Source: Escherichia coli (GTDB lineage Bacteria > Pseudomonadota > Gammaproteobacteria > Enterobacterales > Enterobacteriaceae). Taken from it: a stretch of 64,000 nucleotides of DNA. Below, one piece after another: positions 21,001 to 27,000 of the stretch. Made by a program: the position numbers. Every line of letters starts with the position of its first letter. Positions within the stretch are counted from its first letter, which is position 1. The DNA is taken from NCBI RefSeq assembly GCF_044324785.1, contig NZ_CP172127.1. One strand, written 5' to 3'.

Positions 21001-24000
21001 CCAAGCGAGCCAAAACGGTTTTTCGTCACAATGATTTCAGCAAATGGCGCGGCGCTACTGTTCTCGTCATATACCGCTTCCCGATAGAGCATGATGATTG
21101 AGTCTGCGTCCTGCTCAATGCTTCCTGAATCACGCAAATCTGCGTTTGTCGGGCGTTTGTTTGGTCGCTTCTCAACATCGCGCGAAAGCTGACTCAGGGA
21201 GATAACAGGCGTTTTCAGGTCTTTCGCCATCGCCTTCAGGCTTCCGGAGATGTGAGCAATTGCGAGGTCGTTGCGGTCTGCTTTCGGCTTCTCAATCAGG
21301 CCAAGATAATCCGCCATGATGAGTGACAGGTTTGGATTTTCCTGTTTGTGCCGCTCTGCGATTGAGCGAATTTCTTCTACCGATAACCGCGAGGCATCGA
21401 CTACCCATACATCCAAATCTGCAAGCTGACTCATGCCGTTAGCAACACGTGCCCAGCCTTCGTCATCCATCGATGCAGGATTTCGTAGCACGCTAACCGA
21501 CATCCTCCCGGCGTTGGCAATGCTTCGCTCTGCAATCTGCAATGCGCTCATTTCCATCGAGAAAATCAACACTCCGCGCCGGACGTCAGAACCAGGAATA
21601 ACACGACTTGCAACGCCTTCGGCAATCTTCAGCGCCAGTTCGGTTTTCCCCATACCAGGACGAGCAGCGATTATCACCAGGTCTTCCGCGTTCATCCCTC
21701 CGGTGATGGCATCAAGTTCTTCGATTCCGGTCTTCAGGGTATCTGACTCTTCTCCGTTCCTCAGACGCCTGTCAAGCGTGTCAGTGTAGTCAGTGATGAT
21801 TTCACCTAACCGTACAGGTTTAACCTCGTCACGGGGCTTTCTGATGGCTGAGAGACGCTTTACAAGCTCATCCATCGCTTGACTCGATGCGTCGATGGTT
21901 CCGCTCTGAATTGGTTCACGCATTTCATCCATGATTTCCAGCACCAGACGGCGGTGATAGTTATCCGCGACCATTCCGGCATATCCCTTCAGGTTTGCGG
22001 CACTCGGGCAGTTTTTGCTGGTCATCAGGATTGACGTGAAATGCTCCTCTCCGCACGCCTCGGCAACCATCAGCGCATCGATTAGGTTTCTGTTTCTCGC
22101 CTGCTTGCGGATAACCTCGAAGGCTTTCCGGTAGAGCGGAATTGAAAACGCTTCCGGCTCCAGCGTTGCCAGAACGTCGCTGGCGGTTGGTGTTAATCCA
22201 CCAATCAGCAGGCCACCGATAACGCTCGCTTCGATATCCTGTCTCATGCAATCCCCCTGTCTGCAAACTTCCCTTCCCGTACTCCAGTTAACGAATCTTC
22301 CCTCAGCAGGTAATCAAAATCAGCTGTCCAGCCCGTGTCGTTGTCTCCGAAGTAAAACGGCTTGGCCTGATGCACAAACGCCCTGACATACGCTCTGAAA
22401 CCGTCCACGTTTGGCGTTTTCAGTTGCGGGATGATTTTCTTCAGGCGGCGTTTGCGTTTCTCGTTGACCGCAACAGCGTGTGGCAGTCTGTCACCGACTT
22501 CGGTGTTGTAGGCGTTCAGGAAGGATTCGTAGTCGATTCGTTCTGCCTTGCGACGTTCAGGTTTAACCTGCCCATCGCCACCCCCGTTAGGGGGTAAGGG
22601 GGTATTTGTATTTATTGTCTTTTGTATATTGTCTTTTGTGTTTAGCTGACTTGGCTTATACCCATTAGCCGACTTGGCTAATGTTTTATTAGCTGTTTTA
22701 GCTAATGTTAAGCTGTCCTGGCTAATCCACTGAGAAACAACCTTGTTCACTCCGATTTTCACGCCATCAGCAATGAGGAATTTACGCTCGATAAGCTGGC
22801 GCTTGGCAGCGCAAACATGAGTGTGATGAATACCTGTCATGGCTGCTATCTGCGTGTTTGTGAGTCGATCCATCGGCTTATTGAATCCGTATGTCTTGCG
22901 CATGATAGCGAGCATCACCTTCAACTGCCGGACGGTTAAATCAGCCATCAGCAGACTGTCGGTAATCTCGTTAGCAACGCGCATGAAACCATCTTCGGTA
23001 TCTGCCACGCGATGCTCCACGACCTCAAGTTGAGGCCTGTAATCAGCTAACTTAACGACGCCCATGTTTCACTCCTGCTTTGGCTAGTCTGTAAACACCA
23101 ACAAGGCGCTCTGCGAACGCCCTGTTATTTGCTGCGGCTACCACTAATCCCTCAGGTGAATCAGGGTGTCGAATCTCTTCTTTTTCCTGGTATTTCTTAC
23201 GACGTTTTGTCATAATGACTCCTGTGGATTGATCCAGTCTTTCTACATCAGGCCTCGAAGAATTCGCCGTTCTTCGGGGCTTTTTCTTTTGTCAGGTAAT
23301 TGGCAAGCCGCTTAGTCAGCTCAGCCATTTCATCGTCTTCGATTCCGTATTCCAGAACAGCCAGCATCATGCTTACCTGCGAGAAGAAACCATTCTTCCA
23401 TCGGCTTACCTGATATTCAGGAACCCCCATTGCTCGAGCGAATGTCTTCTGCCCCATCAGTGCCAGTTTGTTCAGCAAGGCTGACTCGATGCGAGCCGCT
23501 TTCTTGCTTTTAGTTGCAATAGTACCCATAGATAATTTCCTTAATGATTAGATAGAGTTGGCTTCGCAAAGAAACGCAAAACCATAGAGATTTGTTTCTG
23601 GTAATGCCCTTTTTCAGGGCGGGGATGTGTAAGAGCGTTAATAACTTAAGCGGCCATTAATTCAGGCCAGATGCTTTCCCAATCAACCGGATGAAGGTCT
23701 TTGCGAGTCACTTCACCATTGCTGAACTTCTCAATCAGAACACAAAGTGCTGCGCCCAATTCATGATTACGGCTAAGTGCTTTCCTCAAATAGCCGATAG
23801 AAGTTCCGCACTTGGTGGCAAATTCTCTCTGCTCTTCCAGTGAAAGGGAGTTCAGATACAAGCGGAGTTCTTCCATTTGCTATCTCCTTCCCGTTGTTGA
23901 ATAAGATGAGTTTACCTGTAGGTAAAAAGCAAATCAATACCCATAGGTTATTTACCGGCAGGTAATCAAAGATAGAATTAAATCATGGATAAATACGAAC

Positions 24001-27000
24001 AAAGACGACTAAGGCTGATAGAGATAAGAGACCGATTCTGTAATGGAAAGGCCTCAGAGTTGGCTCGTCGAATAGAAAGGGAACCATCATACGTTTCCAG
24101 AATGCTGTATCCGGAAGGAAAAAGCGGAAAAAAACGCATTGCTGACGATATGATGGAACTAATTGAAAAATCTTTTAATCTCCCACGCGGATGGATGGAC
24201 ATGCTTGCAGATGGTAAAGCTGGAGCTACAGACCATCTTGAGTTTGCGGGTAACGTTCGTGCGGGTTTTGTTCCGGTAATTGGTGAAGCCGTTTTGGGAG
24301 TTGATGGCTCAGTGGATATGATTGAATTCAGATCCGGTTGGTTAAGCATCTACAGCGGCGATAAAGATGCTTACGGTCTGAAGGTTAAGGGTGACAGCAT
24401 GTGGCCAAGGATTCAGTCAGGAGAATATGTTGTTATTGAACCAAATACGCCAGTACATCCAGGTGATGAAGTCTTTGTAAGGACCAAAGACGGTCACAAC
24501 ATGATAAAGATCATGAACAAAACAAGAGACGGTGATTATCAGTTTAGTAGCATAAACAGTGATCACCGCCCAATCACTCTTCCTGTTGAAGAAGTTGATA
24601 AAATGCATTTTGTTTCAGCTATTGTGAAACACACCAGGTACGTAGACCAGGACGATCTGCCAAAAGTTTGAGGATAAAGCAGCAAGTGTTTATACCCGGC
24701 ATAGTAGTCGCTGTTGTAATCATCTGCTTCATATGGGCAAAGTTATCTCCTGTAAGCTCTAAGCATACAGCTGAACTCATGAAGAAGAAGCATCTTATAC
24801 ATGAGGCAGAATCGATAATTAAAAAGTTCAAAGGCATGTCATACGACGACATGTCATCAGAGCAGATTGCTATGTATAAATGCGCCATTGAGCGTCTTGA
24901 CTACTTAAACGGACTCAAACCCAAACACACCCCAGTAGAATCAAAATTGCCGCAATGGCCAAGCAATCCAAATAGCTTCTGACATCTCCTTTCAGCCCGC
25001 AAAGCGGGCTTTTTTATATCAATCCAAAAAATTAATTACCTGAAAATTCAAGCAGGTAAACTCTTACATCAATTTTATTTACCTGCAGGTATAGACAACT
25101 GTTTTACCTGTAGGTATATTTTAGGCCATCAGCAGGACGCACTGACCACCATGAAGGTGATGCTCTTAAAAATTAAGCCCTGAAGAAGGGCAGCATTCAA
25201 AGCAGAAGGCTTTGGTGTGTGTGATACGAAACGAAGCATTGGCCGGAAGTGCGAATCCGGATTAGCTGCCAATGTGCCATTGCGTGGTGTTTTCGTTCAG
25301 GACTACGACTCCCACACACAACCAAAGCTAACTGACAGGAGAATCCAGATGGATGCACAAACACGCCGCCGCGAACGTCGCGCAGAGAAACAGGCTCAAT
25401 GGAAAGCAGCAAACCCCCTGTTGGTTGGGGTAAGTGCAAAACCAGTTAACCGCCCTATTCTCTCGCTGAATCGCAAACCGAAATCACGAGTAGAAAGCGC
25501 ACTGAATCCGATAGACCTTACGGTGCTGGCTGAATACCACGAACAGATTGAAAGCAACCTGCAACGTATTGAGCGCAAGAATCAGCGCACATGGTACAGC
25601 AAGCCTGGCGAACGCGGCATAACATGCAGAGGACGCCAGAAAATTAAAGGTAAATCTATATCACTTATTTAGAAAATGCAGATTTAGGGAACAGATAGGA
25701 GGCGTTACACCTATGGCATCTCATCCTATGGTTAGAAGGTGGTGCAAATCCTTCGTATTGAAGTATGGATTTCACAGAAGATTCATAGCATTGAGCGCAA
25801 AGATAGTGCATTGGCTGACCGGTATTTGCCGATTTTTTGAGACGATAAACCACCGTAGCAACAGTAGGTGTATACATCTCATAGTTTTTCTTTTCCTCTT
25901 CCCACTTAGAGGCTCGATTTATCTTTTCTTCAAGCTCAATAATCTTGTCCTTAGAAATCATCAAAAGCTCATTAAGTGACATTTGCTGCTGTTGGGCATC
26001 CATGAGCTTATCGACAAGTTCGTATGTTTTTTCTTTTACTGAGTAGTCTATTTGCATTTTCTGGATTTCCTTTACTGCGCCAACAGCACTCATCAGAGCA
26101 CCTCCGGCACCAGAAACTGCATCTGTAATCCTACTTATTATTCCTTTTTCATCAGACATATAAATCACTCTCTTACTGTAGGGGTAAGAGGATTTTACTA
26201 TTTTTCTCGCTGTAGGGGTACACGAGAACCACCGAGCCTGATGTGGTTAAAAGACAGGCATACTAATAAACACTGCACTGTGTATTCATTCCAACGAGTG
26301 AATACACGGAGCAATGTCGCTCGTAACTAAACAGGAGCCGACTTGTTCTGATTATTGGAAATCTTCTTTGCCCTCCAATGTGAGGGCAGTTTTTTTGACG
26401 GAGTAAACGATGATAAAAACTGATTACCCTGCAGAGCTTAAACAAAAAGTAATAACAGCAATTAAATGCTCTTTTATCTCATGTCGTACAGATGAAGAAC
26501 GATATGTCGTTGAGTGTACAATTGTCGAGTTTCTCACAGCGATGGAATTTACCGCTGCAGAATCAATAGATGTATTAAAGCAATCAGACGGAAATGATAT
26601 TGAAACGGATGATGTTATTGACCGACTAATAAAATCATTCGAAGAAGAAATAGAGTAGCCGCCTGAGCGCGGCTTTACCGCATACCAATAACGCTTCACT
26701 TGAGGCGTTTTCGTTATGCAATCAAACAGAAGGAGCATCCTATGCAACAGTTCGCTATTGCAGGGGCGGCATCGGTTCGCCCTTTCAACCCGATTTTATC
26801 GGTGCAGCATTCACGAAAAAATATTTTAACCGGAGCAGACTTTAAACAACCAAGAATGAAAAGTTTGCTCGAAAAGCTTTGGGATATTTTGAAACAACAA
26901 GGCCGTCCATGAGTTTTACAGATAACTGGTCAGACGAAGAATTCATTCGTCAGATGAAAGAATTAATCGGTAACGAAGGAGATATTCATGTCACTTGCAA

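Follow-up and report, generated by a model that had tools for sequence, protein, structure and literature searches.

Which repressor and which operators set the immunity of a prophage whose antitermination functions are those of phage lambda? This question is raised by the stretch from 23606 to 25672, which begins with the first base of the boxB in nutR and ends with the stop codon of N, within a window of 64,000 nucleotides of Escherichia coli contig NZ_CP172127.1 (assembly GCF_044324785.1). The lambda map is reversed in this window and runs from right to left. The original prediction had described the stretch as a mosaic immunity region, in which lambda-type N and nut sites are combined with a non-lambda repressor and palindromic operators. 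We propose, with a probability of roughly 0.85 for the explanation taken as a whole, that an HK620/P22-like prophage inserted at a tRNA-Thr(CGT) gene has here its immC region, the switch between lysis and lysogeny, and that this region arose by cassette exchange, the specificity module of coliphage mEp043 (cro, the right operator region OR, cI, orf98, and the left operator region OL with promoter PL) having been placed between lambda-type N-antitermination elements. The element itself is already known, since it represents a sequenced and phenotypically defined immunity type, that of mEp043, in a familiar mosaic layout.

The comparison with mEp043 c-1 (Aguilavirus mEp043, NC_019706) carries this reading. 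From 23204 to ~25240, the window is ~99% identical in DNA to this phage, and the identity comprises cII, nutR, cro, OR, cI, orf98, the terminator, OL/PL, and nutL; the non-lambda module between the nut sites consists of cro, OR, cI, orf98, and OL/PL. The cI proteins are 100% identical in amino acid sequence, both nucleotide differences between the genes being synonymous, and N is nearly the same over its first ~86 codons, in which only three nucleotides differ, each of them without effect on the protein. OR of mEp043 is identical but for one base outside the sites, OL1 and a split operator-like element discussed below are identical, and OL2 differs in two central bases only. With the same cI, cro, and operators, the region belongs by sequence to the mEp043 immunity type. 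mEp043 is one of the Mexican lambdoid phages that were picked to represent separate immunity groups, and it plates as a group of its own (PMC3442831); its cI has been employed as a phage-specific marker in quantitative PCR (PMC9836094). The mEp043 record has PL and one cII site annotated, and no operators. We found that the cassette is common: at least 80% of 23600-25250 is present, in most cases with an identity of at least 99%, in 51 of 5426 complete E. coli genomes.

Outside this shared part, the mEp043 N leader (~4540-4755) is different and ~110 bp longer than the lambda-like leader of the window (25215-25345), and the C-terminus of N (last ~20 codons), which is lambda-like in the window, differs as well. 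Since both the N leader and the N C-terminus depart from mEp043, a second pair of recombination joints lies within the PL operon. The replication and virion modules of mEp043 also differ from the HK620-like ones of the window. As a source of cI and cro, HK620, Sf6, 933W/phi24B, and lambda were ruled out by the comparisons. The suggestion to align the region with HK620 and Sf6 was thus off target, the true match being mEp043, and HK620 has only virion/late regions in common with the window. The immC region of Sf6 is of the same mosaic type: its non-lambda cassette is flanked by N, nutL, and nutR of lambda type and by an activator of the P22 C1/lambda CII type, and its cII and N flanks agree with those of the window at ~94%. 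However, the Sf6 cassette resembles that of 434 (ACAARNNNNRTTGT operators), and the window has a different cI and cro. Because in Sf6 these lambda-type nut/N flanks enclose a cassette of 434 type, such mosaics are already on record; the present region is one more cassette exchange at lambdoid immunity regions, involving a cassette that is common in E. coli prophages and has been sequenced before, in mEp043.

The flanks of the module proved to be essentially lambda-like, as had been predicted. The N antiterminator (107 aa, 25349-25672, plus strand; Pfam N36, 1.5e-26) is identical to lambda N in 103 of 106 residues (97%), and residues 1-61, which include the arginine-rich motif, are identical throughout. 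Alignment with lambda places nutL at 25161-25191 (plus strand), with boxA TGCTCTTAA at 25161-25169, which agrees with lambda CGCTCTTAA in 8/9 bases, and boxB GCCCTGAAGAAGGGC at 25177-25191, which is identical to that of lambda. In nutR (23606-23637, minus strand; alignment with lambda nutR), boxA CGCTCTTAC (23629-23637, 9/9 bases) and boxB GCCCTGAAAAAGGGC (23606-23620) are both identical to lambda, and two changes fall into the 8-nt spacer between them. The region thus has what characterizes lambda-type N/nut antitermination, namely an N protein with the boxB-binding arginine-rich motif and boxA plus boxB downstream of both PL and the right promoter PR. Homology to lambda DNA (95.6%) starts at PL +1 (A25128) and spans nutL, the N leader, and N. 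This underlines the mosaic character of the region, which is lambda-type from PL +1 through N and again at nutR, with a different module in between.

Palindromes of the form TTACCTG(C/T)AGGTAA had been proposed as repeated operators in OL and OR. They are real and confined to these regions: TTACCTGYAGGTAA occurs with at most one mismatch at 23912, 23952, 25079, and 25104, and nowhere else in the 64 kb. With up to three mismatches, 20 matches were obtained compared to 6.1 expected, a number reached in 0/100 shuffles, while the core TTACCNNNNGGTAA with at most one mismatch gave five matches (1.13 expected, 0/100 shuffles), four of them in OR/OL. A chance origin is ruled out by the shuffles and by the conservation described below. 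A search with the pattern TACCNNNNAGGTA, which contains one N too many, gave zero matches that carry no meaning. The four sites correspond to OR1 (TTACCTGTAGGTAA, 23912-23925, over the PR -10 and spacer), OR3 (TTACCGGCAGGTAA, 23952-23965, over the -35 and spacer of the cI promoter PRM), OL2 (TTACCTGCAGGTAT, 25079-25092, abutting the PL -35), and OL1 (TTACCTGTAGGTAT, 25104-25117, over the PL spacer and -10). This inventory was correct as far as it went, but it lacked the split OL element (25036-25059) and a weaker site, OR2 (ATACCCATAGGTTA, 23937-23950), which had been missed owing to its degenerate right half. The spacing is 25 bp between OR1 and OR2 and 15 bp between OR2 and OR3, and OL1 and OL2 are likewise 25 bp apart.

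In order to define the operator across relatives, we used 80 viral loci encoding the N-terminal domain of cI and three genomic loci, which together yielded 53 distinct OR regions. In these, the operator is conserved as TTACC-N4-GGTAA, with ~2 bits per position in the outer 5+5 bp and a variable center of 4 bp. TTACCTG(C/T)AGGTAA was therefore rejected as the recognition sequence, as its TG(C/T)A center varies among relatives and is not the conserved part of the site. OR1 is kept in the 53 regions, ATACC-YRYA-GG of OR2 is invariant or nearly so, and all ten outer positions of OR3 reach ~2 bits. The OR1-OR3 spacing is 40 bp in all but one of the regions, with OR2 25 bp from OR1 and 15 bp from OR3, and OR3 starts 32-34 nt before the cI ATG. 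Across ~50 related 5-kb loci, sites with at most one mismatch are nearly confined to positions -74, -49, and -34 relative to the cI ATG and to a downstream pair (OL), the members of which are 25-26 bp apart. This phylogenetic footprint, with its fixed distances from the cI ATG and the promoters, supports the proposal that the palindromes are cI operators. Literature searches on these operator sequences found no description of them.

The centers of the sites are TGTA (OR1), CATA (OR2), GGCA (OR3), TGCA (OL2), and TGTA (OL1) in the window. Position 6 is a pyrimidine in 53/53 OR1 and 53/53 OR2 sites (YRYA) and a purine in 49/53 OR3 sites. In phage 434, central operator bases are not contacted and yet tune affinity. 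By analogy, it is plausible that the different center of OR3 contributes to a ranking of the sites or to discrimination between cI and Cro.

The repressor that would bind these sites is a mosaic protein. cI (228 aa, 23985-24671, plus strand) is composed of a helix-turn-helix N-terminal domain (residues 1-72), a linker, and an S24 autocleavage domain, as assigned from Pfam, the identity with mEp043 cI, and alignment. The claim that it is unrelated to lambda cI holds for the N-terminal domain but not for the C-terminal half, which is a Peptidase_S24 domain (Pfam, 63.9 bits, cut-off 23.3) and can be aligned weakly with lambda cI around the catalytic serine (31% over 55 aa). When cI was aligned with lambda cI and 14 relatives, two residues proved invariant: Gly105, which corresponds to Gly112 of the Ala-Gly scissile bond in lambda cI, and Ser138, which corresponds to lambda Ser149. 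Leu104-Gly105 is the predicted scissile bond, and Lys175 (in NMIKI) is probably the catalytic general base. The protein hence shows the sequence features of self-cleaving S24 repressors, i.e. a Ser-Lys dyad, of which Lys175 is only probable, and an (Ala/Leu)-Gly bond ~33-38 residues before the serine.

Residues ~79-221 of cI share ~63% identity with the 933W/phi24B repressor (90/143, hand count from the alignment), and the linker motif VIGEA(V/I)LGVDG is kept. In contrast, identity with the 933W repressor amounts to ~17% in residues 20-78 (10/~59, hand count), so that the N-terminal domains are essentially unrelated; the 933W/phi24B operators are wholly unlike TTACC-N4-GGTAA, and Cro is unrelated, too. 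Neither the DNA-binding domain nor the operators of the window are those of 933W. The N-terminal 72 residues, MDKYEQRR...SYVSRMLYPEGK.GKKRIADDM..IE..F.LPRGWMD, were matched by no model in Pfam and NCBIfam searches. They belong to a large family (609 cluster representatives at E ≤1e-3), in which the recognition helix ...SYVSRM... is nearly invariant. An AlphaFold model of the domain (predicted local distance difference test, pLDDT, 94.4) has its best PDB match in Rep of Salmonella phage SPC32H (PDB 5D50; template modeling score 0.84, root-mean-square deviation 1.6 Å, 26% identity), and a profile search with hmmsearch agrees (E=4e-4), while a PDB sequence search with full-length cI returned noise only. 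SPC32H Rep is thus related in fold and sequence and is the nearest solved structure to this domain. It has another C-terminal domain, is inactivated by an antirepressor instead of by cleavage, and forms a tetramer with DNA-binding domains paired in trans.

We found the same N-terminal domain (75-87% identity) in other prophages on three types of C-terminus: a 933W-like S24 domain, a lambda-like S24 domain (…VSAG…GDSMT…ATFKK…), and a helical tail of ~60 aa without a protease domain. The short-tail forms are proteins of 137 aa from E. coli, Yersinia, and Serratia prophages. Repressors of 137-139 aa with this N-terminal domain have the same operators and no S24 domain and presumably follow another induction route at the same immunity specificity. 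Some of these short relatives adjoin Bro-N, P63C, or defense-like genes (AAA_15, DNA methylase). The idea that cI of the window is an unusual fusion, its N-terminal domain residing mainly on short 137-aa repressors, was dropped, as many S24 forms of 214-303 aa exist; a word-indexed search with an 87-aa query had returned only proteins of ≤150 aa, and these longer forms came from an exhaustive search and the viral loci.

Cro (76 aa, 23646-23876, minus strand; phrog_35) is probably a YdaS-type helix-turn-helix protein. Residues 4-73 match PDB 8co2/8c7k, the 'Cro' of prophage CP-933P (E=2.4e-10). The Pfam YdaS_toxin score of 26.0 bits is under the cut-off of 30, and the structure model is of low confidence (pLDDT 73) with a weak fold match. 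As expected from the original prediction, the comparison gave no similarity to lambda Cro. The cro products adjoining related repressors are 70-74% identical to that of the window. As this identity is found beside the N-terminal domain of the relatives, the travelling specificity unit is cro, the operators, and the N-terminal domain together. It is a possibility that this one DNA-binding specificity module circulates on the three C-terminal domains. If so, homoimmune phages could differ in how they are induced, depending on whether they carry the 933W-like S24, the lambda-like S24, or the short non-cleavable tail. As by-products, the analysis provides a sequence-level operator definition for a widespread repressor family without a Pfam model (the 609 cluster representatives), a clear case of one DNA-binding module on cleavable and non-cleavable C-terminal domains, and a conserved, unexplained split operator.

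A related arrangement has been described for CP-933P, where YdaS shares operators with the cI-like leaderless repressor PaaR2 (PMC8630535). The Cro of the window is probably homologous to YdaS, and CP-933P resembles the present switch, as predicted here, in that its repressor gene is leaderless and the operators, located at PR/PRM and at PL, serve both repressor and YdaS. They differ in that the CP-933P operator consensus consists of 18-bp repeats (GTTTAGTAA), and CP-933P has YdaT instead of a CII-family protein. Similarity between PaaR2 and the N-terminal domain of cI is marginal (E 0.09-0.5).

The promoters fit the operator positions. PR (23909-23937, minus strand) is predicted from reading the sequence, with -35 TTGATT (23937-23932), a 17-nt spacer, -10 TAAACT (23914-23909), and a start near 23902; both hexamers are conserved in relatives. 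PRM (TTTACC-16-TAGAAT, 23951-23978, plus strand) was predicted by a promoter scan, and PL (TAGACA-17-TATATT, 25092-25128, plus strand, start A25128) is indicated by the same scan (10/12), the lambda alignment, and the mEp043 annotation. In every relative inspected, a -10-like hexamer is located 6-7 nt before the cI ATG. The cI mRNA of lambda is leaderless. As the PRM -10 ends 6 nt before the ATG and no Shine-Dalgarno sequence is present, we predict a leaderless cI mRNA here as well, for which paaR2 provides a precedent (PMC8630535). Relative to the predicted starts, the centers of the sites lie at ~-16.5 (OR1) and ~-41.5 (OR2) from PR, at ~-41.5 (OR2) and ~-26.5 (OR3) from PRM, and at ~-17.5 (OL1) and ~-42.5 (OL2) from PL. 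Judged by these predicted distances, the layout is that of lambda for PR/PL repression and class II activation of PRM, save for the close OR2-OR3 spacing.

The region shows hallmarks of a lambda-type switch: cI and cro are divergent, three sites in the 108-bp gap between them overlap the divergent promoters (PR read by eye), and a second operator cluster, OL1/OL2, covers PL distal to cI. An opposite site preference of repressor and Cro, which also belongs to such switches, is hinted at by the differing center of OR3. Further features in common with lambda are the gene order, the tripartite OR, the predicted leaderless cI, the S24 autocleavage domain, the spacing of OR1-OR2 and OL1-OL2 (25 bp here, 24 bp in lambda), the position of OR2 near -42 of PRM, and the N protein and nut boxB described above. 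The two switches differ in the sites themselves (14-bp TTACC-N4-GGTAA compared to 17 bp in lambda), in the N-terminal domain of cI and Cro, which are not detectably similar, in the OR3-OR2 distance (15 bp compared to 23 bp) with an OR3 of consensus strength here, and in a third OL element with half-sites 10 bp further apart.

Downstream of cI, the operon contains orf98 (98 aa, 24686-24982, plus strand), which is an annotated coding sequence in mEp043 and matches phrog_10450 (unknown function). It follows cI directly, before the operon terminator and thus in the position of rex, and its hydrophobic N-terminal segment can be read as one transmembrane helix. Searches against Pfam and PADLOC gave no match for orf98. 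We regard it as a candidate for an exclusion or conversion gene expressed in the lysogen. The cI-orf98 operon is closed by an intrinsic terminator at 24994-25010 (plus strand; terminator scan, 7-bp stem and T run).

How the switch may work is inferred from sequence at every step. Dimers of cI would bind the 14-bp TTACC-N4-GGTAA sites via the N-terminal helix-turn-helix domain. Occupancy of OR1 plus OR2 and of OL1 plus OL2, the members of each pair being 25 bp apart, would cover the -10, the spacer, and the edge of the -35 of PR and PL and thereby keep the lytic operons off. At OR2, ~-41.5 from PRM, cI would be placed like lambda cI for PRM activation, and OR3, which lies over the PRM -35 and has a systematically different center, would mediate negative autoregulation and is likely the first target of Cro. 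The probably YdaS-type Cro is expected to bind the same operators as cI, and the cI mRNA from PRM would be leaderless. Upon DNA damage, RecA-stimulated self-cleavage at Leu104-Gly105 by the Ser138/Lys175 dyad would lead to induction, and the transcripts from PL and PR would then acquire N at the lambda-type nutL and nutR.

The split element (TTACCTG-N10-CAGGTAA, an exact match at 25036-25059, in the 'OL3' position upstream of OL2) is the only real oddity of the region. It consists of operator half-sites with 10 bp extra between them. A single exact match is not significant on its own in 64 kb, so its weight comes from conservation. We searched 64 distinct OL regions for TTACC-Nk-GGTAA with at most one mismatch and found k=4 in 64/64 and k=14 in 50/64; k=29/30, in which the left half of OL2 is paired with the right half of OL1, was also present, and there was essentially no other spacing. 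The distance from the start of the k=14 element to OL1 is always 68 bp, and the element occurs in 8 of 14 sequence clusters and with all three C-terminal domain types. An IHF site within it is doubtful, as the match to the consensus is poor. That the element is a genuine repressor site in a second binding geometry, with half-sites one helical turn further apart, is a tentative idea which we judge more doubtful than probable. Such a geometry could, by analogy, be provided by one dimer with splayed DNA-binding domains or by the domains of two dimers acting in trans, as proposed for SPC32H Rep, and the element might play a role in OL-OR looping or in PRM control.

Several observations weigh against the proposed reading. 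Since both cI and Cro co-vary with the operators, the footprint cannot separate cI sites from Cro sites. OR3 is full-consensus in its outer positions, unlike the weak OR3 of lambda, and with OR2 and OR3 only 15 bp apart, their simultaneous occupancy may be constrained. PR agrees with the consensus in only 8/12 positions and was not reported by the promoter scan, and the catalytic Lys175 is offset by two alignment columns. The 933W repressor has been reported to bind without cooperativity to adjacent sites, and 933W to have two OL sites and no OL3 (PMC3317979); as the C-terminal domain of the present cI is of this type, lambda-style cooperativity between OR1 and OR2 is uncertain. A literature search found no binding, transcription, or cleavage data for this repressor.

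The first of these points opens the way for a different assignment, in which only Cro or some other factor binds the palindromes, or in which these are kept merely as promoter parts, and cI recognizes something else. Conservation alone cannot assign the sites, as Cro (70-74%) travels with the same operators as the N-terminal domain of cI, and some of it could be promoter-driven where OR1 overlaps the PR -10 and OR3 the PRM -35. However, a symmetric 5+5 pattern with a free center is typical of a dimeric helix-turn-helix site and not of sigma-70 hexamers, the sites are present again at OL, which has no cro gene next to it, and a search of OR and OL revealed no further repeated motif. Moreover, all lambdoid switches studied, that of YdaS/PaaR2 among them, have operators common to repressor and Cro. 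We therefore consider this assignment highly improbable and retain the palindromes as the proposed common operators of cI and Cro.

The setting of the region bears on whether the switch still works. To the left of nutR lies the gene for a cII-type activator (93 aa, 23248-23529, minus strand; Pfam Phage_CII, 7.6e-30), which is 49% identical to lambda CII in BLASTP (43/88). Within its 5' end, a TTGC-N6-TTGC motif (23504-23517, plus strand) can be read as the CII-binding motif of a predicted PRE-like establishment promoter, and this motif carries the annotation of a lambda cII binding site in the mEp043 record (2801-2814). A 53-aa open reading frame (ORF) separates cII from the genes of an O-type replication protein (22244-23065, minus strand) and a DnaB-type helicase (20871-22247, minus strand). 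On the other side, the integrase (29271-30431) marks the end of the prophage and adjoins tRNA-Thr(CGT) (30446-30521), the likely attachment site, past which further ORFs are present. The late and virion genes are 96-97% identical to those of HK620-like podophages. Only part of the prophage is contained in the window, its left end being outside, and many E. coli prophages are defective, which would allow for the region to be a relic with a switch no longer working. Yet the genes of the region are all intact, a plaque-forming phage has the identical cI, comparison with relatives shows no mutation in the operators, promoters, or nut sites, and integrase, replication, lysis, and virion genes are all present, those of late and virion functions at the above identity to viable phages. 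We consider a relic still a little less probable than the assignment of the sites to Cro only.

The least probable alternative is that immunity is determined by an antirepressor/immI-type circuit or by orf98 instead of cI, for which one could invoke the P22/HK620-like backbone (some such phages carry a second immunity region), the 137-aa relatives of the N-terminal domain without S24, some of them beside Bro-N or P63C genes, and the predicted co-transcription of orf98, to which phrog_10450 assigns no function, with cI, but which is hard to reconcile with the cro-cI-OL cassette being the only part of mEp043 that is both shared at 99% and unique to this phage, with mEp043 defining its own immunity group and its cI being used as the specific marker, and with a gene position, S24 domain, and operator layout of a classical cI. 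That the gene called cI encodes the immunity repressor is supported by its location between OR and OL, its divergent orientation to cro, the S24 domain, and the identity with mEp043 cI.

Some further features were noted in the prophage. It contains a pair of tRNA genes at 15393-15548 (minus strand), one for Thr(TGT) and one for Asn(GTT), and an Rfam scan of 20000-31000 gave nothing besides the tRNA at the integrase. Antisense to the PL operon, an ORF of 167 aa (25665-26168, minus strand; phrog_1244, unknown function) overlaps the N stop codon by 8 nt and encodes a C-terminal CxxC...CxxC. PADLOC returned nothing for this ORF or neighboring genes. Just upstream of it, within 26172-26220, we found an 11-bp direct repeat, CTGTAGGGGTA (26176-86 and 26210-20), as well as a near-palindrome, CTTAC-N7-GTAAG, at 26172-88. 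Finally, an ORF of 82 aa (26410-26658, plus strand) matches phrog_14587, annotated as an anti-restriction protein (E=5e-48).

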